This document shows positions 1 to 22,320 of a stretch of DNA of 64,000 nt, in pieces (position 1 is the first letter of the stretch; every line of letters begins with the position of its first letter). Position numbers and translations under genes: made by a program. The notes below the pieces were generated by a model. That model searched no databases. It worked only from the letters and a program-made list of their open reading frames with translations, and was not told the DNA's origin. Location of the stretch: the IMG/VR virus record IMGVR_UViG_3300033064_001044, positions 1,428-65,427 of that record, one strand, 5' to 3'. This DNA is from a virus. Taxonomy: Duplodnaviria; Caudoviricetes.

Positions 1-190
1 TACCTAGTTGTTATCAGATACTAACTACACAACAACACATACACACATAACTAACTAACTAAATAACTATTACTAATCACTAACAATTTACCTTGTGTAA
101 TCACATACTAAATACATAGTGATAACAACTATCTATCTCTCTCTATTACTCTCTCTATCTATTACTAATAACAATCATTGTTTATTACTA

Positions 191-207
191 AAGGGGCTTC
201 GCCCCTT
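191..207. terminator. GC-rich hairpin, terminator-like
   Basis: AAGGGGC-TTC-GCCCCTT stem-loop; no long U tract on +. Confidence 0.4.
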
Positions 208-575
208 AGACCCCACCCAATAAACAATAAGTAAAGTAATACAGTTATTAGTTGTTGTAAGTAATCGTCTAAAGAAGTTATGTATTACTTATTTATTTGA
301 TGTTTCATCTTCTGGAACTGTGAGTGATGATGTTATTTATTTATTAGTAAATAAACTTCTATAGATAAATAAACAACTATTTATTTTTATTTATTGTCCA
401 AATCTTTGGCTCTACGGGTTCTCGGATTTATTGCGGTGCGACTAGGTATTCCGACACCCAATCCACGCTCATAACACGCTTGATTTACCCCAAGTTGATA
501 ATTGACTTCAGGTCATGCCATACTTAGCCCACGCAAGTGCCCCTCCTGAAAATGGACTCGGTGAGAAAAAGTAGA

Positions 576-650
576 AAGTTATTTCTATTTTTATTTATAC
601 CAACGACATTGTGTGTCGTGTAAATAAAATAAATAAAATAAAAATAACTT
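576..650. repeat. Long imperfect inverted repeat with inner hairpin
   Basis: AAGTTATTTCTATTTTTATTTATAC ... GTAAATAAAATAAATAAAATAAAAATAACTT flanking ACGACA-ttgtg-TGTCGT. Confidence 0.55.
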
Positions 651-1063
651 CTCCGTAAATAAATTAGTTGTTACTAATAAAAAGTAACGCATAACTTCTT
701 TATGAATACAAACTACTTCCAATGACTAACTGTTTGGCAAACACCTTTGGCTCTTGCGTAGTGGTCAGACACTTTCTCTGATAGTAGTTGCTACTTACTT
801 CAAGTAAAAATAATCTCCGATTAGTTTGTAAAACTGTTCGCCTGTGTATGCGACAACTTACTAAACAAACTTCTTTAGAGATTATGCGTTCAAGGTTTAT
901 TACTTCCGACCTTGTTGTAAGTAGATGTTATTCAACTATTACTAATTTACTTCGCGTCAATAATAAATACGCACTATCACACTCTGTATCACCAACCTAC
1001 AGAGTGTGGTGGTGTGTAGTTATCTCTACACAAACTCAATCCGCTAACGAAAGGTAATACGAC

Positions 1064-1528: not shown

Positions 1529-1795
1529 ATGGGTAGTAACTTCGCAAATGATTTAGCAAGCGGTGAGTTTGTAACTTCTTTAGAACAACAAATCTCAATT
1601 CACTTCTCTGCTAATTGTTATCCACCTGTTCCACAATTCATGGTTGATGTTGCTGTAAAAGCAATTCAATTAGTAAATGATGATGAAGGCGAAACACTTA
1701 TTCAATTACCTCCCCATGTTTCGTTCCGTAATGAAAAAGAAGTATCCGCTTACAACTGTATTGACCAATTACGATTAGAAAGTTGGACTAACTAA
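1529..1795 (+). CDS. hypothetical protein
   Basis: 88 aa ORF, GGAGGT RBS. Confidence 0.8.
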   Translation: MGSNFANDLASGEFVTSLEQQISIHFSANCYPPVPQFMVDVAVKAIQLVNDDEGETLIQLPPHVSFRNEKEVSAYNCIDQLRLESWTN

Positions 1796-2071: not shown

Positions 2072-3454
2072 ATGTATTCAATCCTTATTACTTCACAAAC
2101 AAATCAAGTATCAACACAACGACAGAACTTAGTTGTCGCACTATCAAGTGATGATGTTCGTGTATGGACACGCACAACAAATGGTGGTCGCGGTGAGAGC
2201 AACGCATGGTCAGATACAACATGGCTTGATTTACAAGCAACACAGTTTGCTAATGAAGCAATCGTTGGCGAAATACTTTCGTCACCACTAAGTCCTATTG
2301 ACGAACTAGCACTAGAGAACAATGACCGACCAACAATTCTTATTCAGAAACTAACAAAGCAATTCGGTTTGCGACACAAGACGATTACTAATCGTTTGTT
2401 AGGTGACGCAATTAGTGAAGTGGAGAGTTTGATTACTACAGACCCAAACAAATTATCAAAGTATCGTAGTGACGGCAGAAGTGATAAGTCTGCTATTACT
2501 AACAGCACACCAACACCAACACAAATGCCAATAACTATTGTTCGCACACCTGTTGTTACACCACTAGCAAATGTAATTGCTACAGAAGTTACAGGCGATT
2601 ATGTTGCTCTAATTCCAAAACCTGAAAGTGTTGCTGGTTATGTAACACGCAACTTTGCTGATGTAAATGAAGTAACTATTTACGATTACGCAATCACTCA
2701 CAAGAAAAATGTTGCTATAGAAGGTGAAGCAGGAACAGGTAAAACAACTTCTGCTAAACACTATGCGTTTATTCGCAACCTTCCTTTCTATTCTTTCTCA
2801 TCATCAGTTGGTGCTGAATACTCACAACTATTCGGCAAAGTTATTATTAGTGATGAAGGCAAACCAACATGGCAAGACGGAGTTATTACGCAGATGTGGA
2901 AAACAGGTGGTGTATTAGTTATTGACGAAGGTAACTTCTTACCTCCTAAAATTGCTTCATCACTTCACAATGCGTTTGACGATAATCGTATTCTTACTTT
3001 GCTTGATAAGAAGGGCGAGATTATTACAGCACACCCTAATCTCCTTGTAATTCTTTCTTACAACAACGGCTATCGCGGAACTAATCGCATGAACGAAGCG
3101 TTCCTTGACCGCTTTACTTTCAAGTTACAGTTTGAATACGACATAAACATTGAAAAGAAGTTTATTCCTTCTAAAACTTTGTTGGAGTTGTTTGCTTCAA
3201 TGCGAGCAGACGCATTACAAGGTTTGTATGAGACACCACTATCAACAAGACTTCTAAAGAACTTTGTTGAGTTGTGTGGTCTTGGTTATGAGTTTGCTGT
3301 TCAGAACTTACTCAATAACTTTGCTGATGATGAGCGTGGCTCTGTTGCTTTGTTGTTAGAAGCAAAGCGTTACAACATTATGTCTGAACTTGGATTTGCT
3401 GTTGAGAACATTGTTGTTGAACAACAAGATGAAGCAGAACTTCTAAATGCGTAA
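2072..3454 (+). CDS. MoxR/CbbQ-NirQ-NorQ (CobS-like) AAA+ ATPase with N-terminal extension
   Basis: Walker A GEAGTGKT, Walker B LVIDEGN, NxGYRGT and NEAFLDRF motifs, STR sensor-2; adjacent VWA gene. Confidence 0.9.
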   Translation: MYSILITSQTNQVSTQRQNLVVALSSDDVRVWTRTTNGGRGESNAWSDTTWLDLQATQFANEAIVGEILSSPLSPIDELALENNDRPTILIQKLTKQFGLRHKTITNRLLGDAISEVESLITTDPNKLSKYRSDGRSDKSAITNSTPTPTQMPITIVRTPVVTPLANVIATEVTGDYVALIPKPESVAGYVTRNFADVNEVTIYDYAITHKKNVAIEGEAGTGKTTSAKHYAFIRNLPFYSFSSSVGAEYSQLFGKVIISDEGKPTWQDGVITQMWKTGGVLVIDEGNFLPPKIASSLHNAFDDNRILTLLDKKGEIITAHPNLLVILSYNNGYRGTNRMNEAFLDRFTFKLQFEYDINIEKKFIPSKTLLELFASMRADALQGLYETPLSTRLLKNFVELCGLGYEFAVQNLLNNFADDERGSVALLLEAKRYNIMSELGFAVENIVVEQQDEAELLNA

Positions 3455-3504: not shown

Positions 3505-5514
3505 ATGACTAGCGTTATGCCCAATGTATTACACGAACAAACTTCTATAGAAACTGAATTAGCAAACAGAAAGCGTGACCGCTTACAACGATTAGCACAG
3601 GTGTTTAGTCGTGCTAACTCTGTTCTTACTTCACGACCAATCGCTGTTCATGTTGTAAGTGAGCCACACAAGAACGCACCTGCTTGGTCTAGTGCTAGTG
3701 ATGTGTGGTTCAACTTAGACAAAGTGCGTGATGAGTTTGACGCACAATCTTTGTTATCACTACAGGGTTTGAACTTCCATGAGTTATCTCATGTTCGTTA
3801 CACACCACGCAACGGCTCGGAGATTTGTCGTTGGGTTATTGAGAACGATAAGTGGCAAGCGTTCAATGCGTTAGAGGACATGAGAATTGAGGGCTTGTTA
3901 GTTTCTCGCTTCCCTTCAATCGCTAACTGGCTTACCGCAACTGTTCTTGATTACTTAGTAAGAGAACCCGAAGGACTAGGAACTTTGTTCGCACTTGTTC
4001 GTGGTCGTAGATACTTACCTGTTGAGTTACGCAAAATCGCAAGAGAAAACTATTTGCGACAAGAGGACATAGATGAGTTGTGTGATGTTGTAGATAGTTA
4101 CCGCACTTTGTTATTCCCTGAGGATACAGAAGTTGCTAAAGAACTTATTGCTCGTTACCACGACTTGTTACAGAACTTACCAATCATTGAACAACCAACT
4201 GGAAGTGGAACTGGTAAAGGTGATGATGAGGGAACTGTAATTGTTCAAGTGCGTATTCACGACCCTCATGGTCACGCAACACGACCAACACAAGGTGTTG
4301 AGTCAAGCAACTCACGACCTGCTTCTAAAGAGGAACAGCGTCAAGACAGAGATAATCTAAAGAAGCAAGACAAACAAGATGAAGCAGAAGTATCTAATAA
4401 AAAACCTGATGTTGTTATAGATGTTCATGTTGATAACACACCACAGGACACAACAGATACAACTTCTAATCAACCTTCTAAAGAGAAGTCTGATACACCT
4501 GATGTTGCTGATAACTTTGATGATGTTGATGTTGATGTTGATGATTATGACTTTGATGATTACAACGACACACAACCAACACCACCAAAAGATAATGGCA
4601 ACTCATGGGGAACTGGTAGTGAAGGTGACGACAACAAGCCTGACGCTATCAACGAACAGATAACTGATTTGCTTGATGAAATTGTTGATGAACTTTCTAA
4701 AGAACTTGACCGACTATCTATTCAGGTCAATGGTTCTCCATTGTTAGAAGGCAACAAAACAAAAACACCACAGCAAATTGACTACACACCAAAACCTGTT
4801 CCACAAGATTTGTTCTTAGTTTCTAAAGCGTTTGCTAGAGAACTAGAACGCTTGCGAGCAAAGCATGACCCTGCTTGGGATAAGTTTGTTGATAGTGGTC
4901 GCTTCAATGTAAATCGTTATCTCAATGGTGGTGAGTTTGATACTTTGTTTGATGAGTGGTCAAGTGGTCGTGATGATGTAACTTCTATAGAAGCCGTAAT
5001 CTGTTTAGATTATTCAGGTTCTATGGAAGGCGATAACGCGACTTCTGCTTACCAATCTATGTGGGCAATCAAGAAGGCACTAGAACAAGTCAATGCTCGC
5101 ACAACAGTTGTGTTGTTTGACGATAGAAGTCCAAGACTTCTTTATGGTGCTGACGACAAAGCAGGAACAGTAATTCGTGACGCTGGAACTGCTTATGGAA
5201 CTGACCCTACTGACGCACTTCTTTATTCTCAAAATGTATTAGCAACAACTGAACAGCCAATCCGTTTGTTATTTATGATTACTGACGGGATTTGGCAAAG
5301 CAAAGTTGCGGAGGAAAGTGTTAGAGAGATGAAGCGAGCAGGTGTTGTAACCTGCCAAGCACTTATCGCTAACTACGAATTACCTAAAGAGTATCTAAAC
5401 GAGAACCGACATGAGTTTGAGTTAGTGTCTCATGTTCGTAGTGCTAAAGATGTTCTCGCTTTAGGTAAGGACTTAGTGCGACTATCTATCGCACGACAGT
5501 TAGTTACTCACTAA
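3505..5514 (+). CDS. CobT-like VWA protein: N-terminal HExxH domain, acidic linker, C-terminal VWA/MIDAS
   Basis: FHELSH and NALEDMRIE; D/T/P-rich linker; CLDYSGSM MIDAS, GT and ITDG motifs. Confidence 0.88.
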   Translation: MTSVMPNVLHEQTSIETELANRKRDRLQRLAQVFSRANSVLTSRPIAVHVVSEPHKNAPAWSSASDVWFNLDKVRDEFDAQSLLSLQGLNFHELSHVRYTPRNGSEICRWVIENDKWQAFNALEDMRIEGLLVSRFPSIANWLTATVLDYLVREPEGLGTLFALVRGRRYLPVELRKIARENYLRQEDIDELCDVVDSYRTLLFPEDTEVAKELIARYHDLLQNLPIIEQPTGSGTGKGDDEGTVIVQVRIHDPHGHATRPTQGVESSNSRPASKEEQRQDRDNLKKQDKQDEAEVSNKKPDVVIDVHVDNTPQDTTDTTSNQPSKEKSDTPDVADNFDDVDVDVDDYDFDDYNDTQPTPPKDNGNSWGTGSEGDDNKPDAINEQITDLLDEIVDELSKELDRLSIQVNGSPLLEGNKTKTPQQIDYTPKPVPQDLFLVSKAFARELERLRAKHDPAWDKFVDSGRFNVNRYLNGGEFDTLFDEWSSGRDDVTSIEAVICLDYSGSMEGDNATSAYQSMWAIKKALEQVNARTTVVLFDDRSPRLLYGADDKAGTVIRDAGTAYGTDPTDALLYSQNVLATTEQPIRLLFMITDGIWQSKVAEESVREMKRAGVVTCQALIANYELPKEYLNENRHEFELVSHVRSAKDVLALGKDLVRLSIARQLVTH

Positions 5515-5572: not shown

Positions 5573-6163
5573 ATGAAACTATCAGAACTAAAAGTCGGAA
5601 ATGTTTATGGAATTGTTCCTTCATGGGGTTACAACAATTCAAGTGCTAGAAAGACAGCAACAGTAAAAGAAAATGATGTTGAGAAAGCAACAATTATTTC
5701 TCTTGATAAGTATGAGTATCAGGCTTCACAAAGATACCAAGACCAAACTAAGTTTGTGTTAGCAAAACAAGGTGATAGGTCTGTTGGTGTAGTTGTAAAA
5801 GCGGTAGATAAAAATGGTAATGACTTCTACTGGACAGCACGACTAGCAGACATTGTTGAGGAGTGGTCTAAGTTAGAACCAATTTGGGCAGACAAAAACA
5901 AACTGGAACAAGAACAACAACTCATTGAGGAAGCAAAACAAGCAAAAGCAAAAGCAATTAGACGACAAGCAGAGGAGTATGTAAATCGCGCTAATGTATC
6001 TATTCCAAAATCTGTAACAGATTTAGTTGGTAAGCGTTGCGGTAATGTAACTATTCATACAACAGGTTATGGAGAGGACACGACAGCCGTAGCAACACTT
6101 TCGTTATCAGACTTGGAAACTCTTATTGAACTCGCTTATGACGGAAAGGAACAGGTGGCGTAA
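5573..6163 (+). CDS. hypothetical protein
   Basis: 196 aa ORF, AAGAGG RBS. Confidence 0.8.
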   Translation: MKLSELKVGNVYGIVPSWGYNNSSARKTATVKENDVEKATIISLDKYEYQASQRYQDQTKFVLAKQGDRSVGVVVKAVDKNGNDFYWTARLADIVEEWSKLEPIWADKNKLEQEQQLIEEAKQAKAKAIRRQAEEYVNRANVSIPKSVTDLVGKRCGNVTIHTTGYGEDTTAVATLSLSDLETLIELAYDGKEQVA

Positions 6164-7183: not shown

Positions 7184-7864
7184 ATGACCACCCAAACAAA
7201 ACATAAGCAAGCAGGTTCTAAAGCAGGTAATCAGTATGGAACTTACAAGGTTCGCACAATTACAACAGCACAACAGAACTTCCTAAAGAAGTTACTGGAA
7301 CAAAAGAAACACGACATAGATGTATCCGCTATCAACTTTGATGAAGTCAATGTTCAATGGGGAACAGAACTCATTGAGACACTTATCAAGGCGGAGGATA
7401 AATACGAACGCCTAGCAAGTGAGCGACAAGTAGAGTATGTAAAGTCTTTAGCAAACAATCGTATTGGCGGAGATGTCGTGCTTCAATCGCTAAATGATAA
7501 TTCAACTGCTAAAGAAGTTTCTGTATGGATTGAGCAACTACAAAACGCACCATACGCAAAGACAATTACAATCGCAGAAACAGGTGCGTATCGTTACAAC
7601 GGAATTGTTTATTCTGTTCGCAAAGGTCGGCAGAGTGGCAACTGGCAAGTGTTCTCAATCAACCCTGAAACAAACAAATGGGAATACAACAGAACCGCAT
7701 ACAAGTATCTGTATGAACTAAAAGATACTGACCGCCTAACTCTCAATGAAGCAATAGAAGCAAGTGGGCAGACAGGCTCTTGCGTTCATTGTGGGCTAAC
7801 ACTTACAGCATTGAAGTCTGTTGCTGGTGGCATGGGTTCTACCTGCGCTAAGAGGTATCACTAA
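7184..7864 (+). CDS. protein with C-terminal DUF6011-like Zn ribbon
   Basis: CVHCGLTLT..SVAGGMGSTCAKR; two internal (T/S)xxQxx(F/Y) repeats. Confidence 0.75.
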   Translation: MTTQTKHKQAGSKAGNQYGTYKVRTITTAQQNFLKKLLEQKKHDIDVSAINFDEVNVQWGTELIETLIKAEDKYERLASERQVEYVKSLANNRIGGDVVLQSLNDNSTAKEVSVWIEQLQNAPYAKTITIAETGAYRYNGIVYSVRKGRQSGNWQVFSINPETNKWEYNRTAYKYLYELKDTDRLTLNEAIEASGQTGSCVHCGLTLTALKSVAGGMGSTCAKRYH

Positions 7865-8163
7865 TGCCAACTGCTAAAGAACTTTCAAAGCAACTAAAAG
7901 AGTGGTATCCAAAAGGTGATGAACAAGTAGCACTTATCGCAGGGCTATTAGATAAGAGCGAAATCTATGATGTTATTTACAACTCTTATGATGATGTTGA
8001 GGACTACGAAGTTACTGATGAGATGTTTCAAGATGTTGTAAGTAAAGTCGCAAACTGCGATAACGAACTCAATGCCCTTTGGGAAGTTATCAAAGATGTT
8101 ATTACTGGTGAATACGAGAAGCGTATTCACTTAGAAACCGATAACGAACTATGGGAGGCGTAA
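7864..8163 (+). CDS. acidic hypothetical protein with C-terminal DxxLW tag
   Basis: 99 aa ending LETDNELWEA. Confidence 0.8.
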   Translation: MPTAKELSKQLKEWYPKGDEQVALIAGLLDKSEIYDVIYNSYDDVEDYEVTDEMFQDVVSKVANCDNELNALWEVIKDVITGEYEKRIHLETDNELWEA

Positions 8164-8663
8164 TGAATAACTTTGATAACGAAGCAGATTGGTTGTGGGA
8201 TTACAAAAACGGATTTCGTATTCCTTCACAGTTTGGTTTCGGGATAGAAATTACACCAACACCCGATAAGCAAGACAGTAATTGGTATTCAGGTGAAGTA
8301 GCAACTCTTACCAATAAAGAACTAAATCACACAATAAGTATCTGTGCGGTAGGTGAGATTATGATTATTTACAGACCTGATACTTCTAAAGACGAATACG
8401 AAACATTTTATTCTCTAAATGATTTACCGAAAGAACAATTCGTCAATGACGCTTCTGTTCAAAGAGCGTTAGAGATTGAACGCAAATTAGATTACACACA
8501 CAACAACTGGTATGAGTGCTTTGATGAACTAACACAAGAGTTTGGTGATTGCGTTCATCACGAAATACAAGAAGCACTTGATTGTGCCGTTTCACAACTA
8601 TGCCAACACCGCTTGATTGAGTCTGTATTAGACCAAACCGATAAAGGACTATGGGAGGAGTAA
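8163..8663 (+). CDS. acidic hypothetical protein with C-terminal DxxLW tag
   Basis: Start moved to the TAATG overlap after a GGAGG RBS; ends LDQTDKGLWEE. Confidence 0.8.
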   Translation: MNNFDNEADWLWDYKNGFRIPSQFGFGIEITPTPDKQDSNWYSGEVATLTNKELNHTISICAVGEIMIIYRPDTSKDEYETFYSLNDLPKEQFVNDASVQRALEIERKLDYTHNNWYECFDELTQEFGDCVHHEIQEALDCAVSQLCQHRLIESVLDQTDKGLWEE

Positions 8664-8666
8664 CTT

Positions 8667-9002
8667 ATGACTACAGTAAAAAACATGATAAAAAATCTAA
8701 AGGAGTATGACGAGAACGAACACATACTGGTTCTTTATTGGAGTAAAGAACTTGGGTATCAGTTTGTAGAACACCTGTTACAAGATTTGAAACATGAACA
8801 CAAACTAAGTGATGAACAAATGACTAAGTTATTTGATGAAACTTGGGAGTATGTAACAGACATGGAGTATGAAACACCTGATGTTGGAGACGCTCTAATA
8901 AGTAATCTAAGAGAAGGTTTAGAGGAAAGCATTACAGAACTTCTAAAAGAAGTTGTGGATAAAGAACTAGAAATTGTTGATAAAACACTATGGGAGGAGT
9001 AA
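8667..9002 (+). CDS. acidic hypothetical protein with C-terminal DxxLW tag
   Basis: 111 aa ending LEIVDKTLWEE; N-terminus loosely similar to 7864..8163. Confidence 0.8.
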   Translation: MTTVKNMIKNLKEYDENEHILVLYWSKELGYQFVEHLLQDLKHEHKLSDEQMTKLFDETWEYVTDMEYETPDVGDALISNLREGLEESITELLKEVVDKELEIVDKTLWEE

Positions 9003-9006
9003 CACT

Positions 9007-9372
9007 ATGAAATACGCACACATGATTATCGGAGTTCCTGATGAGCAAGACCCTGAACAAGTTGCTTTAGAAATCTTGGCAGACTTCTCGGAGAACAACT
9101 ACGACAGCAATCCTGAACAACTGGAACAAATCTTTGCTCGCATTGTTGGAGTCAATTCAGACAATGATGTTCTTTACATAGGACAAGACGGCAACTACGG
9201 AGACGCTAGAGATTTATGTCTATTAGACACTTCTTTATGGTCTAACGCTGATGAGGAAGCCTTCTCTGAAATCGCAGAGAACGATAGCGAGTTAGCAAGT
9301 TTCGCTTCACAATTCAATGGCGACCCCTCTCTTACCCCTGCTAGATACTTATTAGGAGACACACATGAGTGA
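9007..9372 (+). CDS. acidic hypothetical protein
   Basis: Start moved to the ATG after the GGAGGAG RBS. Confidence 0.75.
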   Translation: MKYAHMIIGVPDEQDPEQVALEILADFSENNYDSNPEQLEQIFARIVGVNSDNDVLYIGQDGNYGDARDLCLLDTSLWSNADEEAFSEIAENDSELASFASQFNGDPSLTPARYLLGDTHE

Positions 9373-10000
9373 TACACCCGAAATCAAATTAGTAAAGACT
9401 TCAAGAGGTTCTACCTATCGCATGAAAAAGAAAGAGATAGTCAGGGTTCAGAAATCCAATCTGACTTTGCCTTACGAAGTTGGCAAACTTCTTAGGGGAT
9501 TGGCTATGCCTCAAAAGAAGGCTTACTGCTTACTTCTTATAGAAGGTAGTTGGACACTACAAAGTATCGCTAACGAACTTCTTTGCCACAGACAAACTGT
9601 TCTTGATTACACAAGGTCTAAAGAAGCACAAGACGCTGATGTATTAGCAAGCGTTTGGGATTTACCAATTCCAAAGTTGCCAAGAGTTGTTGTTGGTGAA
9701 GTCTATGAAAAAGATGTTGTTGAGCCTAACGCTGATGTTCTAAAGAGGTTATTAGAACTTCAACCTTTGGCACAGAAGGTTCGTAGTTACAGCCCAAAGT
9801 TTCGTGAGGAAGCAGAGGAATACACAAAACTATTAGCAGAGGAGATTGGTCGTGGAGTAACTGCGTATCAACTTTCTAAAGAACTTGGTATCACCATTGG
9901 TGCTATCAATTTCCGTCTCACACGATACGGATACAAGCCATTAGGCAAAGGCAAATCAAAAGCCTATAACACTATTCTTGAACAAAACCGACCACAATAA
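9365..10000 (+). CDS. putative DNA-binding protein with two HTH-like segments
   Basis: WTLQSIANELLCHRQTV and VTAYQLSKELGITIGAI. Confidence 0.7.
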   Translation: MSDTPEIKLVKTSRGSTYRMKKKEIVRVQKSNLTLPYEVGKLLRGLAMPQKKAYCLLLIEGSWTLQSIANELLCHRQTVLDYTRSKEAQDADVLASVWDLPIPKLPRVVVGEVYEKDVVEPNADVLKRLLELQPLAQKVRSYSPKFREEAEEYTKLLAEEIGRGVTAYQLSKELGITIGAINFRLTRYGYKPLGKGKSKAYNTILEQNRPQ

Positions 10001-10011
10001 GGAGGCAACAC

Positions 10012-10467
10012 ATGATTACAAAAGAACTAGAAACAACTACAACGACAACTAAATGGCAAGGAATAACTTTCGGGATAGAAACTATCTTGTCTGACTACGA
10101 CCAAATAGTTATAGATGTTCCTGTATTTCAAAGCGGTTACAACAACACTACTAATAATTGGGAAGTTGTGGCAACAGGTGAAACTCGTAAGTTTCGTTTA
10201 GAAAAAATTGAATACAGTTTGGTAAATAGAAAGAACGACTCTGTTGGTATTCACTCTTTGTATGGTAGAGGTTTCACAAAAGCCAACACCCTAAGGGTTC
10301 AAGGCAATTCTTTCTATAATGAACACATAACTGATGAAATCCTTGCTCAAATCCCTGACCACTATCACGACAAAGCAAAAGAACAGTTTTTACTAACTGC
10401 TAAAGAACTTACAGAGCAGATGAACACAATAAATGCCAACGGGCTATCACTAACACCACAAAGATAG
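10012..10467 (+). CDS. hypothetical protein
   Basis: 151 aa, AGGAGG RBS. Confidence 0.8.
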   Translation: MITKELETTTTTTKWQGITFGIETILSDYDQIVIDVPVFQSGYNNTTNNWEVVATGETRKFRLEKIEYSLVNRKNDSVGIHSLYGRGFTKANTLRVQGNSFYNEHITDEILAQIPDHYHDKAKEQFLLTAKELTEQMNTINANGLSLTPQR

Positions 10468-10475
10468 GAGGAACT

Positions 10476-11093
10476 ATGCCAAATCATTGTATAAGCACAC
10501 TAACAATTACTGGTAACTCAAAACAACTACACAAACTTCTAAAGCAAGTTGAAATAACAAAATCGGAAGCAACTCCAAGCCATGATGAACGAGAGTTCTC
10601 ATGCCACAAGATTATTCCGCGACCTGCTAAAGAAGATGATAATTGGTATAACTGGAACTCGGAGAACTGGGGAAGCAAGTGGGATTTAGCAGACTTTGAG
10701 TGGATAACTAACGATTGGGAAAACGGATTTGTTCATGCTTCTTTTTGGACAGCGTGGAGTCCTATTCCCCTTGTGTTAGAGAAGTTATCTAAACAACATA
10801 AGTCTTTAGAAATGACTTACCGCTTCCATGATGAAGGGGCTGGTTTCTACGGCACTTACTCTTTCAAGGGTGGAGTGCTAACAGTTGATGAGGAAGGTGA
10901 GTCCTTCACCTGTGATGTTAGAACTCGCTACTGGGGATACTCGGAACACCATTACTGTAAAGAGTGTGAAAATCACTTTGAGTGTCCTGATGAAAACTAC
11001 GAAGGCTCTATTGAGGAAATCTGTGAGGATTGTAAGACTTCTTTAGAAGCAACAGAGAAAGACTTATGGGAGGAGAAAGAAAGTGTTGCGTGA
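10476..11093 (+). CDS. DUF1281/YubB ferredoxin-like protein with C-terminal Cys cluster and ExxLW tag
   Basis: MPNHC start, WYNWNSENWGSKWD, FWTAWSP; ends LEATEKDLWEEKESVA. Confidence 0.8.
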   Translation: MPNHCISTLTITGNSKQLHKLLKQVEITKSEATPSHDEREFSCHKIIPRPAKEDDNWYNWNSENWGSKWDLADFEWITNDWENGFVHASFWTAWSPIPLVLEKLSKQHKSLEMTYRFHDEGAGFYGTYSFKGGVLTVDEEGESFTCDVRTRYWGYSEHHYCKECENHFECPDENYEGSIEEICEDCKTSLEATEKDLWEEKESVA

Positions 11094-11352
11094 ATTACCT
11101 ATGCTTCAACTCAAACGAGAACCGAATAAAAAAGGTGGGGGAAGTTACCTATCAAAAGACAAGCGTATCTATGTCCTCCGAAATGAGGACAACCTATGGG
11201 CGTGGGGATACCACGACTACAACGATAAGGGTGAGTTCATTGGTAGTCGTAATGGTGACGACTCTTTGTATGGCGCAAAGACACATTGTGTTGAAGCCAT
11301 AAACAAAGTTCTTTATGAACAAGCCTATGACGAAGCACTATGGCAAAACTAA
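11083..11352 (+). CDS. hypothetical protein with C-terminal DxxLW tag
   Basis: 89 aa ending YDEALWQN. Confidence 0.7.
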   Translation: MLRELPMLQLKREPNKKGGGSYLSKDKRIYVLRNEDNLWAWGYHDYNDKGEFIGSRNGDDSLYGAKTHCVEAINKVLYEQAYDEALWQN

Positions 11353-11414
11353 TGGATTACGAAACTGTAATTCTAATAACTGGGCAACCTTCTTTAGAAG
11401 GTATCAACCCGAAG

Positions 11415-11452
11415 TTGAATAAAGGAATAAATCAAGATAACCTGAGGTTATC
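11415..11452 (+). promoter_or_regulatory. putative sigmaA promoter overlapped by a palindromic operator
   Basis: TTGAAT-17 nt-TAACCT; GATAACCT-G-AGGTTATC at 11436-11452. Confidence 0.45.
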
Positions 11453-11473
11453 CATAACAGAGGAGGCAACAAC

Positions 11474-11677
11474 ATGGCAATAAAACATTACCTAGTGGAA
11501 TTGGCAACGGAAGTTCCAATCACTATCAACGATAAGAACCTAAAAGACAATTCAATTTATGAAACTGTCTTAGAGGCTACGCAACATTACATAAACGATT
11601 ACATAGAAACTGATGAGCAATTCTTTGTAAAGATTGTTGCGGAACAAACACATGAGGAGAGTGATACAAATGTCTAA
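11474..11677 (+). CDS. hypothetical protein
   Basis: 67 aa, GAGGAGG RBS. Confidence 0.7.
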   Translation: MAIKHYLVELATEVPITINDKNLKDNSIYETVLEATQHYINDYIETDEQFFVKIVAEQTHEESDTNV

Positions 11678-13057: not shown

Positions 13058-13082
13058 ATAGGGGTTGAGGAGAGGAACTCAA

Positions 13083-14408
13083 ATGGCGTATGTAGTTACC
13101 CGAAATAAACGGCATACAGGCTATTACCGCAGAAGCGGTAAGGTTCAGAGTGCTGGAACTTATGGCACTAGAGCCAAAGCCTTGAACTCTGCCCTGCTCG
13201 CAGAGGAAGGCATAGTCTCAACTAACCCCGAACTAATTACAACCCTTGAAGCCTATGTAAAAGATTGGCTCATCAACCGAACAGATGTTCGGGTAATAAC
13301 AAAGAAAACTTATGCCATAACTCTAAAGAAGTATGCCCTACCTTCTTTGGGTCATAGACAAGTAACAGGCATAACTCGTAAAGATGTTAGGCAACTTATA
13401 GAGAAGTTGCTCTCCGAAGGTATAAGTCCTGCCACAGTTTCCCATGTAAAAACAGCGTTGGGTTCTGTGTTCAGGCAACTCGTTGAGGAAGAACAAATCC
13501 CCGCAAACCCTACGCATGGCATAAAGATAAAGACTTCTAAAGCAGACCCCACAAGTTCTTTAGAGCCTTCAGATTTCAAAAAAATTGTTGAGTCCCTGGA
13601 AACTGAAGGGGCAAAGATGTTTGCTCAATTCTTAGTTGCTTCAGGCTGCCGATTTGGAGAAGCCACAGAACTAAGAGTAAAAGACTTCAACTTCAAGTCA
13701 AAAGAAGTTTATGTTCGTAGAACTGTGAGTGATGTAGGCAAAGCCTTGAACAATGGAAGCCGTTTCCTTATCGTGCCTTCAACAAAGAACGGGCATAAAC
13801 GCACAGTAATCATCAACAAAAGCCTCAATGAAGCCCTAAAGAAGTATGTTCGGGATAGAAAATTAGGGGCTAATGATTTGCTGTTTTCCAAAGCCTTAGT
13901 GATAGAGTTTGGTAAAATAGTGACCACAGGTAGTCAATTGGAAAGGACTAAGAAGCCCTATACCGTTGGAAGTAGACTATTCCAACACGCAACTCCGTAC
14001 TCGTACAATGTCGGTGGGTGTAGGTGTGACCTGTGTAAACAAGCGGTCAGTAAGTATCGCAAACAATACAGAGAGGACAAATCAAAAGGTAGAGAAAGCC
14101 TAAGCCAAAGCCTTAGTCAAAGCCAAAGCCTTGACCAAAGCCTTGACCAAAGCCACCTCAGTCGTGACAAGTGGAGAACCACTTGGAACAAAGCCATAGA
14201 AAAGTCAGGTATTGGTTGGTATCCAAGAACGCATGACCTAAGACATGCCAACGCTACTCAACTCCTAAAGAGTGGGGTAGATGTGCATGAGGTCAAAGAG
14301 CGTTTGGGTCATCAGTCAATCACAACGACAGAGCGGTATCTACACCGTCTCCGTCACCAAAGTTCAAATGCTGCGGAAGCAGTAAATGATTACTTTGGGG
14401 AAAGGTGA
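13083..14408 (+). CDS. tyrosine recombinase/integrase with inserted Cys/His module
   Basis: GCRFGE (Arg), STKNG (Lys), HDLRH, LGHQS, TERY (Tyr); N-terminal SAM-like core-binding domain. Confidence 0.9.
   Translation: MAYVVTRNKRHTGYYRRSGKVQSAGTYGTRAKALNSALLAEEGIVSTNPELITTLEAYVKDWLINRTDVRVITKKTYAITLKKYALPSLGHRQVTGITRKDVRQLIEKLLSEGISPATVSHVKTALGSVFRQLVEEEQIPANPTHGIKIKTSKADPTSSLEPSDFKKIVESLETEGAKMFAQFLVASGCRFGEATELRVKDFNFKSKEVYVRRTVSDVGKALNNGSRFLIVPSTKNGHKRTVIINKSLNEALKKYVRDRKLGANDLLFSKALVIEFGKIVTTGSQLERTKKPYTVGSRLFQHATPYSYNVGGCRCDLCKQAVSKYRKQYREDKSKGRESLSQSLSQSQSLDQSLDQSHLSRDKWRTTWNKAIEKSGIGWYPRTHDLRHANATQLLKSGVDVHEVKERLGHQSITTTERYLHRLRHQSSNAAEAVNDYFGER
14095..14155 (+). repeat. coding tandem repeat of AAAGCC/CAAAGCCTTGAC units (SLSQSLSQSQSLDQSLDQS)
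   Basis: Direct repeats visible in both DNA and protein. Confidence 0.8.
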
Positions 14409-17825: not shown

Positions 17826-19343
17826 TTACTCTAGGCTTTGTTGAATGATTTTGTTAGTTTCATTAGCGGTCAAACCACCGTTTGGAAGGTCTTTTAGAGC
17901 CTGTGCTCTGTCACCAAAAATGGCTGAAAGTACTCCTCCTGACGACTGCCGTTCAGCAGTAATTCTAATGAACTCTCGGTTCTCTTCTAACTCTTTCATG
18001 CCCTTGACCAGTTTGAAAAGACGGTCAATTTCCTGTGATGTGTTTGGGTCAGGGTAACCACCATTGAGTTCTTCTGCAAACCGAGAGAAAGCAACTCTTG
18101 CTCCCTGCATCTCAATAACAGTATTTAATAAGGCTTTTAATTGTTCTTTAGTCTTTATCTCAACAGGTAGGTTGAAGGCACAACTGTTCTGAGGTTTGAA
18201 GGCTGGACAGTTAGAAGCAACGAAACAGGTGTCACATTGTCTTAGAGAAGTCCCTGTTGTTTGAACCATTGGAACGTCTTTAAGGACTTCGTTACCCTCG
18301 TCATCGACATCAACAATGGTCTTCATTTTGTAACCAAAGACAGGGAGGTTTGTTATCTCTTCTGGGTCTCTTTCTATGAGTTTTTTAGGCTCTTCAAGTG
18401 CTGAATCTTTCCGCACTTCAAGGTCACTGTTATCAGAAGCACCCCCCCATGTTTCCGCGAAAGTACTCATAAGGGGTGTATCGCTGTTATCAGATAATAA
18501 GGGGTCATTACCGCCTTCAATAATGTGAAGGTCAGGGCGTTTTTTATCCATTGAGGACTCCAATTGTTTGTAAGACCATACGGCAATCTTAGATGACTCA
18601 ACGCCATCGTTTTCTAAAAACTCCTCAAAGTCTAGTCCTGCTTTGGTTACTACGGCTTTATACCGTGGTCTGGCTTGAGCCATCATCTTTTTAGGGTAAC
18701 GAACAATCTGCTTGCCATCCCAAATGATGGTCTCACCGTTTCGCATAGGAGACAGCCATGAAAGGGTTGTGGAGGTTGAAAAAGGTATCTGACGTAGGTT
18801 GTCTGGCTTGGCTGAACCTAGAGCGTGGAACTTCGTACCCTGCTGGGCTACAAGGGCTTTTGTGACCCCTGCAAGGGTCGTAACAGACTCAATAGTGGCG
18901 TGGGGTATGGCGACATTACGATAGGTCTTAGACCACTCTCTGAGGCTTTGAAGCCCGTAAACCTCATGCCAAACAACCCACAGTTTTGGGTCGTGTTCGT
19001 AAGAGGCTCGCTCTTGAAGTACCCAATCTAACCCCAAAACCTGTGAGTCAAACTCAACAAACCCACTGATGCGTTCCAGGTTGTTTGCTACAAAATCTTG
19101 GTATTCGGCTGCTAAAGAAGTTAGTTCTCTCATTGAGAGGTTATCTCTTTCTGCCTGGGCCACACCAGAGTCTAAGATGACTTTAACTTCTTCTGGGAAA
19201 TGCTCAGAGACTAGCCACAACTTAGTCTTTGGAAGGTATCTCTTCTTTAGAGCGTAAAACGACAGGCTCATAACTTCTACAGACATTCCTTCTAGAAGGG
19301 TACGGTTGCTACCAACCTCTGCTCCACCAAAAATAATCTTCAT
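17826..19343 (-). CDS. TGT/DpdA-like TIM-barrel protein fused to a 4-Cys cluster and helical tail
   Basis: VILDSG, KFHALG and PF..S...SW..P.R.G motifs; CDTCFVASNCPAF...C. Confidence 0.55.
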   Translation of the reverse strand: MKIIFGGAEVGSNRTLLEGMSVEVMSLSFYALKKRYLPKTKLWLVSEHFPEEVKVILDSGVAQAERDNLSMRELTSLAAEYQDFVANNLERISGFVEFDSQVLGLDWVLQERASYEHDPKLWVVWHEVYGLQSLREWSKTYRNVAIPHATIESVTTLAGVTKALVAQQGTKFHALGSAKPDNLRQIPFSTSTTLSWLSPMRNGETIIWDGKQIVRYPKKMMAQARPRYKAVVTKAGLDFEEFLENDGVESSKIAVWSYKQLESSMDKKRPDLHIIEGGNDPLLSDNSDTPLMSTFAETWGGASDNSDLEVRKDSALEEPKKLIERDPEEITNLPVFGYKMKTIVDVDDEGNEVLKDVPMVQTTGTSLRQCDTCFVASNCPAFKPQNSCAFNLPVEIKTKEQLKALLNTVIEMQGARVAFSRFAEELNGGYPDPNTSQEIDRLFKLVKGMKELEENREFIRITAERQSSGGVLSAIFGDRAQALKDLPNGGLTANETNKIIQQSLE

Positions 19344-21927: not shown

Positions 21928-22320
21928 TTAAGAGTTCCAGAGTCCTTGCTCTTGCGTTTCTGAGGTTGCTTTTTGTTTTGCAGCACGTTTTGCATTACGG
22001 GCTTCCATCTTAACTTCACGTCCACTTTTAACGCCAATAGCACGTCGAACAATGGATTGATGCTTGCCAGTAGATGGGCTGTGGGAAACGTCTGGATAAA
22101 TCCAACCACCTTCATGGTGAACGGCAATTGGGGTGTTGTAAGACTTAACGTGGTAATCGGTTGTGTTTGCTACCTTTGCCATTTGTTCTGAAAACTGGGT
22201 CTGGTTTAACCAACCGTGTGAGGCTGGTGCTCCCTTTACGCCTTCCATATTAGAACCCTTAAAAGGTTCACGTGCTGAAATTAGTGGTCCAGCATTTGTA
22301 TTAGAAGTTTTTTTAGCCAT
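21928..22320 (-). CDS. hypothetical protein (SYNTPIA...STGKHQ type)
   Basis: 130 aa; ends EQGLWNS. Confidence 0.75.
   Translation of the reverse strand: MAKKTSNTNAGPLISAREPFKGSNMEGVKGAPASHGWLNQTQFSEQMAKVANTTDYHVKSYNTPIAVHHEGGWIYPDVSHSPSTGKHQSIVRRAIGVKSGREVKMEARNAKRAAKQKATSETQEQGLWNS

Follow-up and report, generated by a model that had tools for sequence, protein, structure and literature searches.

A recurrent acid-x-x-Leu-Trp tail at or near the C-termini of unrelated small proteins in a lineage of uncultured phages

Six tails and the genes that carry them

The DNA analysed here (the window) is a stretch of 64,000 nucleotides, positions 1,428 to 65,427 of the IMG/VR record IMGVR_UViG_3300033064_001044, from a 65-kb uncultured phage. 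C-termini of the [DE]xxLW type occur in six proteins of this phage, which fall into at least four unrelated families (Table 1), and all six, that of the distant gene 21928..22320 included, read exactly as the first-pass annotation had written them. The consensus that we propose is [DE]-x-x-L-W-[EDNQK]-x, usually with the stop codon directly after it. The carriers are mostly early, small and acidic. One had been described as DUF1281-like, and the family B protein indeed matches DUF1281_C above the Pfam gathering cutoff (36.9 versus 22.8 bits, E = 3.4e-9, residues 78-143); Pfam and PHROGs searches gave no function for the family A, C and D proteins. The 8163 carrier starts at 8151 in the ORF list and has its ATG start at 8163. 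In the family B protein the motif is extended by KESVA because the next gene (GTG 11083) overlaps, and the gene after the family D carrier begins 38 nt downstream.

Table 1. Coordinates in the window of the tail carriers, their tails, the overlapping Shine-Dalgarno (SD) sites and three upstream genes
Feature	Coordinates	Strand	Remarks
AAA_5 (MoxR/CobS-like) ATPase	2072..3454	+	query for relatives; genomic context only
CobT-like protein	3505..5514	+	N-terminal domain with invariant HExxH, acidic linker, C-terminal VWA
Conserved 196-aa protein	5573..6163	+	directly 3' of the VWA gene
Family A carrier	7864..8163	+	99 aa, net charge -16; ends ...TDNELWEA-stop
Tail D-N-E-L-W-E-A	codons 8140-8160	+	7864 carrier
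GGGAGG in 7864 gene end	8153-8158	+	SD for ATG 8163
Family A-related carrier	8163..8663	+	166 aa from ATG 8163; ends ...TDKGLWEE-stop
Tail D-K-G-L-W-E-E	codons 8640-8660	+	8163 carrier
GGGAGG in 8163 gene end	8653-8658	+	SD for ATG 8667
Family A carrier	8667..9002	+	111 aa, net charge -18; ends ...VDKTLWEE-stop
Tail D-K-T-L-W-E-E	codons 8979-8999	+	8667 carrier
GGGAGG in 8667 gene end	8992-8997	+	SD for ATG 9007
Family B carrier	10476..11093	+	205 aa: DUF1281_C, Cys-rich stretch, motif, then KESVA
Motif E-K-D-L-W-E-E	11055-11075	+	10476 carrier; C-terminus ...EKDLWEEKESVA-stop
GGGAGG in 10476 gene end	11068-11073	+	SD for GTG 11083
Family C carrier	11083..11352	+	89 aa; ends ...YDEALWQN-stop
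Tail D-E-A-L-W-Q-N	codons 11329-11349	+	11083 carrier; no SD overlap
Family D carrier	21928..22320	-	130 aa; alpha/beta domain 1-95, Lys/Arg/Ala/Glu-rich helix, then tail; ends ...EQGLWNS-stop
Tail E-Q-G-L-W-N-S	21931-21951	-	21928 carrier; no overlapping gene or SD

The carriers had been called unrelated, with differing protein bodies, which holds for several of the families but must be qualified for three of the five early ones. An alignment of the 8667 protein with the 8163 protein covers the C-terminal half of the latter (E = 2e-5), an N-terminal stretch is common to the 7864 and 8667 families (hhalign E = 2.6e-4, probability 42%), and the ends of the 7864 and 8151 (ATG 8163) genes, already noted as similar in DNA, are identical at 24 of 27 nt. 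These three carriers are probably paralogues, so the window would hold about four independent families rather than six.

Among the 97 proteins of the whole 65.4-kb genome LW is strongly over-represented at C-termini: 6 of the 21 LW dipeptides lie within the last 9 residues, and the chance of at least five proteins with LW at positions -4/-3 is 7e-8. The longer [DE]xxLW pattern is found 6 times in 1,164 tail residues versus 4 times in 18,974 body residues, a 25-fold excess (Fisher p = 6e-6), and none of the other 48 hydrophobic pairs tested in tails exceeded 2.

The phage had no blastn match to cultured phages, and the closest cultured homologues of its AAA, VWA, polymerase and family D proteins are in phages of Actinobacteria. 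A profile of the AAA protein matched nothing in a set of one genome per species. The family D profile had one match in genome contigs, on a 1.5-kb contig of a 1.5-Mb, ~50% GC MAG, and no AAA gene turned up in the 401 genomes examined from the order of that MAG. A search of the phage for tRNA genes was negative.

Conservation of the tail as a peptide

Four of the six tails in the window overlap the ribosome-binding site of the next gene, all by way of the exact 9-mer TATGGGAGG, which has four copies in the window, only at 8150, 8650, 8989 and 11065; by our arithmetic about 0.5 exact matches would be expected by chance in 128,000 positions. With one mismatch allowed, a shuffle test gave 11 matches versus 7.4 expected, which is not significant. 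The overlap of WE(E) with GGAGG in four carriers had been described before and is correct, as is the statement that the 11083 copy lacks GGAGG: the tail DNA of that carrier (CTATGGCAAAACTAA) has no such SD site.

Is the tail, then, simply what a TATGGGAGG(AG)TAA SD-plus-stop cassette happens to encode? On this explanation the peptide would be a functionless by-product of translational coupling together with paralogy, and would owe its spread to tandem duplication or to recombination where genes meet. It has in its favor that each of the 9-mer's four copies lies at a gene end with its GGGAGG 5-8 nt before the next start, that the three probable paralogues are among the carriers and two of them have nearly the same gene end, and that signals do shape tails here, as the start/stop overlaps recurring with ...KEQVA-stop, ...KESVA-stop and, in relatives, ...KKEEVA-stop show. 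But SD sites within other gene ends of the same genome use all three frames and encode EE, GR, RG or GD, and the 11083 and 21928 tails have no SD overlap at all. Less favorable to selection of the peptide is that Leu in the early-gene tails is always YTA, although CTA plus TTA make up 52% of the Leu codons there.

The relatives bear most directly on this question. We compared the window with 14 IMG/VR loci found through their AAA proteins, which are 43-94% identical to that of the window, giving 34 distinct tails in all. These use five Leu codons (CTA 17, CTC 7, TTA 5, TTG 3 and CTG 2) and ten different codons after Trp. In the relatives the tails lie on both strands and often have no ribosome-binding site nearby; opposite-strand tails such as CTCTGGAACTCTTAA and CTGTGGGCGTCGTAA have neither GGAG nor GAGG at the Trp codon or directly behind it. 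Between the window and its relative L001, none of the 15 anchor positions (acid, Leu and Trp of 5 tails) differs in amino acid and 2 Leu codons differ synonymously, whereas of the 10 x positions that separate the acid from Leu 6 have changed. The acid and the Leu, which lie outside the SD, are thus invariant, in agreement with the earlier remark that both are kept with variable codons.

Within single families the picture is similar. The sequence [ED]xxLWxx ends 117 of 120 family D homologues among the matches listed (120 of the 152 found), although in the window nothing overlaps this tail, and the linker before it has a 4-residue indel. D-x-x-L-W-E-[EA] is kept in 8 of 9 database homologues of the family A 8667 protein, after a variable indel of 6-7 residues; D, E, L and W are invariant in all seven aligned family C orthologues; and all 6 family B sequences keep the L and W, with between 7 and 25 residues past the motif. 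Conservation of GGAGG nucleotides regardless of frame was looked for specifically, and it was the peptide that was found to be kept. To judge from these comparisons, the tail is selected at the protein level and not as GGAGG nucleotides, and the SD overlap in four tails does not account for the motif. The relatives largely refute the by-product explanation, which we regard as very improbable. Where genes are packed tightly, the Trp-Glu codons (TGG GAG G) have probably also been recruited as the SD site of the next gene, which would fix the residue after Trp as Glu and would not create the motif itself. In overlapping the ribosome-binding site of the gene that follows, the tag offers a clear case of dual coding and hints at a route by which such tags spread.

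Portability and restriction to one lineage

By BLAST, 31 tagged ORFs fall into 14 clusters, although one cluster is a doubtful 50-aa ORF. Orthologues and more distant homologues that lack the tail also exist: the family A orthologues of two relatives (L008 and L014) end before it, the family D domain homologues of Rhodococcus phage Reynauld and Streptomyces phage Wakanda have neither linker nor tail, and alignments of the family B homologues of cultured phages reach residue 167 at most. The tail is therefore a lineage-specific add-on. The alternative offered in the first-pass annotation, a cassette-junction DNA repeat used for gene shuffling, is not favored, because among close relatives the Leu codons vary synonymously while the residue stays constant.

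How widely do such tails occur? A scan of IMG/VR for D-K-x-L-W-E-E-stop matched 25 stretches, of which 21 belong to one other protein family ending ...DKFLWEE-stop, with no second such tail nearby in the six loci scanned; the remaining matches are 2 close relatives of the phage, one 9-codon ORF and one ...FWEE. By this narrow pattern, a tag on several proteins was thus not seen outside the lineage. The lineage itself is not small, since family D comprises 152 database clusters, on contigs of up to ~100 kb, and two relatives (L005 and L013) are ~100-kb contigs with the same motif and AAA+/VWA neighborhood. Among the papers listed by full-text literature searches, none appeared to deal with such a tail or with a phage AAA+/VWA pair that recognises it.

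A probable docking peptide and its candidate partners

What common role could be served by a tail that is enriched at C-termini, conserved as a peptide, portable and restricted to one lineage? We think, with a probability of roughly 0.6, that it is a short helical docking or recognition motif. Acid, Leu and Trp at i, i+3 and i+4 would lie on one face of a helix and form a portable, probably helical recognition peptide. Several unrelated proteins, small and for the most part very acidic, appear to have received it in this lineage by way of a variable linker; the early (+ strand) block encodes most of them, and at least one is encoded elsewhere. Its most likely role would be to plug these carriers into one common partner. 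Both the docking and any choice of partner we infer from the evolutionary pattern.

In AlphaFold2 models the tail forms the last part of a long unbroken helix (H73-110 of the 8667 protein and H100-129 of the 21928 protein) and is not disordered, with modest pLDDT in the tail region (50-65 in family A, whose model reaches only 64, and 65-76 in family D). Because of this helix we also considered a role in cis or in a coiled coil, in which the Leu-Trp helix end packs on its own protein body or drives homo- or hetero-oligomers of the carriers and there is no separate hub; the i, i+3, i+4 spacing would suit this. We think it unlikely, since bodies as unlike as a helical bundle, a Cys-rich stretch past DUF1281_C and an alpha/beta domain are all followed by one five-residue core, the linkers between core and bodies have indels, some orthologues do without the tail, and an element that packs on its own domain should vary along with that domain and not remain the same from one family to the next. 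The family D domain had no match in PDB at E <= 0.001 by Foldseek, and a wide VIA-align search gave a best Z of only 3.3.

The tail might also be a degron or timer, read by a protease or unfoldase adaptor of host or phage that would clear early proteins at the proper time. C-terminal degrons such as those of ssrA and MuA lie at or near the C-terminus and have a non-polar end. The position of the tail, its mostly early, small and acidic carriers and the AAA+ ATPase and HExxH-bearing protein encoded just upstream all suit this idea. The ends do not: the 23 tails in which just two residues follow Trp finish with E, A, N, S or G (K also occurs among the tails overall) and never with a bulky hydrophobic residue, and 11 of the 34 tails have 3-17 residues after Trp (3 in 2 tails, 7 in 3 and 10-17 in 6). 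Moreover, the tail is absent from actinophages that have the same AAA+/CobT-like pair (below). We rate a degron as improbable.

In form the tail resembles known portable docking peptides. Beta-clamp-binding motifs are five- to six-residue peptides of the QL[SD]LF type, with Gln at position 1; many unrelated proteins have one, frequently at the C-terminus or close to it, and are docked by it on one hub. They have a Leu-aromatic pair at positions 4-5, as do the phage tails, where it is always L-W. Unlike in the clamp motifs, position 1 of the phage tails is Asp/Glu in 30 of 31 and Gln in 0 of 31, and acidic or polar residues follow the Trp. A Trp-bearing clamp motif does exist in Actinobacteria, the phylum that hosts the phages with the closest cultured homologues: PMC10421592 gives the beta-clamp-binding motif of mycobacterial ImuB as 352-QLPLWG-357.

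Other acidic tips offer a second parallel to the phage tails. Through a C-terminal acidic stretch with one or two hydrophobic or aromatic residues, the bacterial SSB tip and the T7 gp2.5 and gp4 tails bring several proteins to the same partner. As in the SSB tip and T7 gp2.5, an acid precedes the hydrophobic anchor of the phage tails, three residues before Leu in 30 of 31. SSB-type tips end on an aromatic residue whose free carboxylate is part of recognition, whereas the phage Trp is followed by 2 to 17 residues; given the 11 longer tails, a free carboxylate next to Trp cannot be required. In T4 the polymerase gp43 and the late transcription factors gp33 and gp55 have a common C-terminal tail that binds a ring-shaped hub, the sliding clamp, and so place one short peptide on functionally different phage proteins. 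The motif sequence differs from T4's, and this phage, for which Pfam finds a DnaB-like helicase, primase, SNF2 helicase, family A polymerase and RecA-like protein, encodes no sliding clamp recognisable by Pfam. Since relatives conserve it as a peptide, the acid-x-x-Leu-Trp-polar tail is most likely a portable docking tag.

The odds that the docking partner is a host protein are about even, and those for a phage protein are rather lower. Tentatively, one could go further and suppose a lineage-wide addressing system, in which one helical tag links a dozen or so unrelated small acidic takeover families to a single hub. If that hub were the host sliding clamp, it would be read through an actinobacterial-style Leu-Trp motif with acid replacing Gln; if it were a phage protein, it could be a lineage-specific receptor such as the 196-aa protein. 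As the tag's last codons double as a ribosome-binding site, the tag could travel with cassettes and be grafted onto any upstream gene. Short docking peptides common to many viral proteins point to control hubs of the cell or virus. Should there be one receptor for this tag, pulling it down once would identify a first target of an abundant uncultured phage group, and the tag would be a function-independent handle on a dozen or so "hypothetical" early protein families.

The proposal of the first-pass annotation that the motif recruits different cargoes to one hub thus stands in part, as regards a peptide-level motif on unrelated families; the comparisons and the complex prediction made here pointed to no hub. 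One of its candidates, the upstream VWA/AAA+ machine, is weakened: the MIDAS motif D-x-S-x-S is present in 14 of 14 VWA orthologues, but the cultured actinophages Cantare and Gray, which have a homologous AAA+/CobT-like pair, show LW tails in 0 of 54 and 0 of 56 annotated CDS, which would argue against a VWA hub. The 196-aa protein, a candidate hub only, has no homologue among cultured phages and no usable match in the ESM Atlas (TM <= 0.36 to small beta-barrel domains). It adjoins the VWA gene in 13 of 14 loci, the remaining one (L011) ending inside the VWA gene. A complex prediction with the CobT-like VWA protein, the 196-aa protein, Mg and the 11083 protein in one model, which counts neither for nor against any binding, gave a median score of 0.39 that was not specific, as a control with the VWA chain replaced scored 0.30.

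Six tails and their carriers

The first-pass annotation had described six proteins of the window that end in a C-terminal peptide [DE]-x-x-L-W (genes 7864, 8163 and 8667, here called family A; 10476, family B, DUF1281_C; 11083, family C; and 21928 on the minus strand, family D), and all six tails were found exactly as written. Two starts in the ORF list were too early; the true starts are ATG 8163 (TAATG overlap), ATG 8667, ATG 9007 and GTG 11083, each preceded at 5-8 nt by GGGAGG, and the 9-mer TATGGGAGG has exactly four copies in the window, every one at these four junctions. The fifth early tail (11083-11352) is without the GGAGG site, as had been stated, and the distant tail (21928-22320) is also without one and is followed by a 38 nt spacer.

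Are the carriers unrelated, as had been claimed? Families A, B, C and D do differ from one another, but the three family A carriers are probable paralogues. The 8667 protein can be aligned to the C-terminal half of the 8163 protein (E = 2e-5), the 7864 and 8667 family profiles have their first 35 residues in common (hhalign E = 2.6e-4, probability 42%), and the layout agrees in a joint alignment, so the window count is probably one paralogous family plus families B, C and D. BLAST clustering places 31 tagged ORFs of the relatives in 14 clusters (counting one doubtful 50-aa ORF), and some of these clusters may be distant paralogues.

The 97 proteins called across the whole genome contain 21 LW dipeptides, six of which fall in the final nine residues of a protein. 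At least five proteins with LW at positions -4/-3 would arise by chance with a probability of 7e-8, and [DE]xxLW occurs 6 times in 1,164 tail residues versus 4 times in 18,974 body residues (25-fold, Fisher p = 6e-6), although kinship between some of the carriers means that the figures exaggerate independence. LW was the sole outlier among 49 hydrophobic pairs tested likewise, every other pair occurring at most twice in tails. Trp at position -3 is found in 7/97 proteins (1.4 expected).

Peptide or nucleotide conservation

The tails might be a by-product of coupling signals, and the first-pass annotation had set conservation of the GGAGG nucleotides only against its own proposal. The overlapping Shine-Dalgarno (SD) site does shape the residue after Trp, that one position, since it is Glu in 4/4 window tails with SD overlap and Gln or Asn where there is none. 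Elsewhere in the same genome, SD sites inside upstream gene ends are read in all three frames (GAG GAG = EE, GGG AGA = GR, AGA GGT = RG, GGA GAC = GD), so the SD does not force Trp-Glu; nor can it fix the Leu or the upstream acid.

Fourteen IMG/VR loci retrieved with the AAA protein of the window (43-94% identity) give, together with the window, 34 distinct tails. Their Leu codons are CTA (17), CTC (7), TTA (5), TTG (3) and CTG (2), and the residue after Trp is written with ten codons (E, D, N, K, Q, A). In tails on the strand opposite the AAA gene, for example ...EELWNS-stop (CTCTGGAACTCGTGA), ...DELWAS-stop (CTGTGGGCGTCGTAA), ...SLWNS-stop and ...TLWDE-stop, neither the Trp codon nor the sequence directly behind it contains GGAG/GAGG. 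L001, the 94% relative, differs from the window at none of the 15 anchor residues (acid, Leu and Trp) of the five early tails, where 2 Leu codon changes (CTA to TTA) are synonymous, but at 6/10 x positions between acid and Leu. These results favour the peptide, and we regard an origin of the tails as a coupling by-product as very improbable.

Another set of ends does look like a second recurrent tail that is a by-product of coupling signals: unrelated proteins end in ...KEQVA-stop, ...KESVA-stop or ...KKEEVA-stop where the next start overlaps the stop (window 6140-6163 and 11076-11093, and genes after the VWA gene in relatives L007-L014).

Conservation and distribution of the tail

In family D the end [ED]-x-x-L-W-x-x, with Trp at -3, is present in 117 of the best 120 of 152 database proteins, with variable x positions and last two residues in these 120, and the alignment runs from a conserved domain through a stretch rich in Lys, Arg, Ala and Glu, which has a 4-residue indel, to the tail. 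In the AlphaFold2 model of the 21928 protein (pLDDT 86) residues 1-95 form an alpha/beta domain and 100-129 a long helix ending in the tail; no solved fold matching this model was found. Residues 100-130 (window 21931-22030, minus strand) are Glu/Arg/Lys/Ala-rich and predicted as a single long helix, which in this model may be a rigid spacer keeping the tail off the domain. Family A (8667) keeps D-[KT]-[ET]-L-W-E-[EA] past a 6-7-residue indel in 8/9 database homologues, the ninth being a shorter sequence that stops ahead of the tail. In family C, 7/7 sequences share the D, E, L and W although their identity to the window's is otherwise 28-33%, and L and W are invariant in 6/6 of family B, where 7 to 25 residues follow the motif. 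The number of residues after Trp is 2 in 23 of the 34 tails, 3 in 2, 7 in 3 and 10-17 in 6; the motif is thus near-terminal rather than strictly terminal.

Judged from the sequences compared, the tail is an add-on typical of this lineage, a property of no protein family, nor of the AAA+/VWA pair as such, because orthologues and homologues exist without it. Family A orthologues in relatives L008 and L014 stop before the tail, the family D domain lacks linker and tail in Rhodococcus phage Reynauld gp98 and Streptomyces phage Wakanda gp2, and the match to family B homologues in cultured phages reaches residue 167 or less. Near the homologous AAA+/CobT-like pair, LW tails are absent from Brevibacterium phage Cantare (0/54 annotated CDS) and Gordonia phage Gray (0/56). 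An IMG/VR scan for D-K-x-L-W-E-E-stop returned 25 stretches, only 2 from this lineage and 21 from one unrelated protein family, and six of those 21 loci, scanned further, had no other such tail. Among loci L020-L044 is a separate phage group (36-39% GC, contigs 42-83 kb) in which one protein family ends in ...GRG[TIV]DKFLWEE-stop and differs in its N-terminal part (65 to 198 aa).

The 121-aa acidic protein 9007-9372 (+) has an internal D-T-S-L-W-S 45 residues before its end, invariant in 4/4 relatives within an otherwise conserved stretch, which may be an internal motif copy or a coincidence. Near-terminal Trp without Leu is seen in two more early proteins, 1529-1795 (+) (...LESWTN-stop; relatives ...LESWTN-stop, ...LEAWVK-stop) and 11340-11483 (+) (...ATTWQ-stop, its TGG overlapping the next gene's ATG at 11474).

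Possible function and genome setting

What might the tail do? We favour a docking or recognition tag (probability about 0.6). Its pattern is the one that short linear motifs recognised by another macromolecule usually show: three anchors are invariant, x positions change fast, linkers vary, bodies are unrelated, and tails have been both acquired and dropped. Anchors spaced at i, i+3 and i+4 point to a short amphipathic helix whose N-terminal side is acidic. That the tail is a helix associating in cis or with itself seems unlikely, and we also think it improbable that it is a degron. In concept the tail resembles those of T4 gp43, gp33 and gp55, which reportedly bind the clamp, the acidic ones of T7 gp2.5 and gp4, and the tip of SSB, but it differs from them in sequence and aromatic position. 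The literature search, at the level of search results, found no published account of such a tail.

The VWA protein, proposed earlier as one candidate hub, is weakened as partner by the tail-less actinophages that carry a homologous AAA+/CobT-like pair. By analogy, a sliding clamp would retain some appeal, because mycobacterial ImuB has a Leu-Trp clamp-binding motif, QLPLWG (PMC10421592), and the nearest cultured kin are actinophages; however, 30/31 phage tails have Asp or Glu where that motif has its defining Gln. Another candidate would be the lineage-specific 196-aa protein whose gene follows that of the VWA protein.

The VWA protein, "CobT-like" by the annotation of its actinophage homologues, carries an invariant HExxH (H92, E93, H96) in its N-terminal domain, as well as some 200 residues of acidic linker (whole-protein net charge -41) and an intact MIDAS motif; HExxH and MIDAS are both kept in 14/14 relatives, and a metallopeptidase-like role is possible.

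Main features of the genome (window positions)
Feature	Position	Strand	Remarks
Plus-strand block	about 1 to 15.6 kb	+	AAA_5 ATPase, CobT-like VWA protein, small-gene run, integrase, lysozyme-like protein
AAA_5 ATPase	2072-3454	+	
CobT-like protein with VWA domain	3505-5514	+	
Tyrosine integrase	13065-14408	+	
Lysozyme-like protein	within plus-strand block	+	
DpdA/queuine-tRNA-ribosyltransferase-like protein	17826-19343	-	505 aa; PHROG 887 match, E = 3e-53
Class II ribonucleotide reductase		-	
Replication set		-	family A polymerase, RecA/UvsX-like, Cas4-like exonuclease, RuvC, SNF2 helicase, primase, DnaB-like helicase, IstB-like loader
Structural genes		-	

The record is a single contig of 65,427 bases (GC 41%), of which the window covers 64,000, and all genes beyond the plus-strand block are on the minus strand. 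The DpdA-like protein suggests that the phage may carry out 7-deazaguanine DNA modification. No DNA-level match to any cultured phage was found. For the proteins AAA, VWA, polymerase and 21928, all nearest cultured homologues are from actinophages (of Brevibacterium, Gordonia, Streptomyces and Rhodococcus), with identities of 32-40% or lower. GC is lowest (0.35) at 1-2000; window 1-1000 and the preceding 1.4 kb of the genome have short ORFs only, on mixed strands, and this low-GC region may be a regulatory, origin or terminal region.
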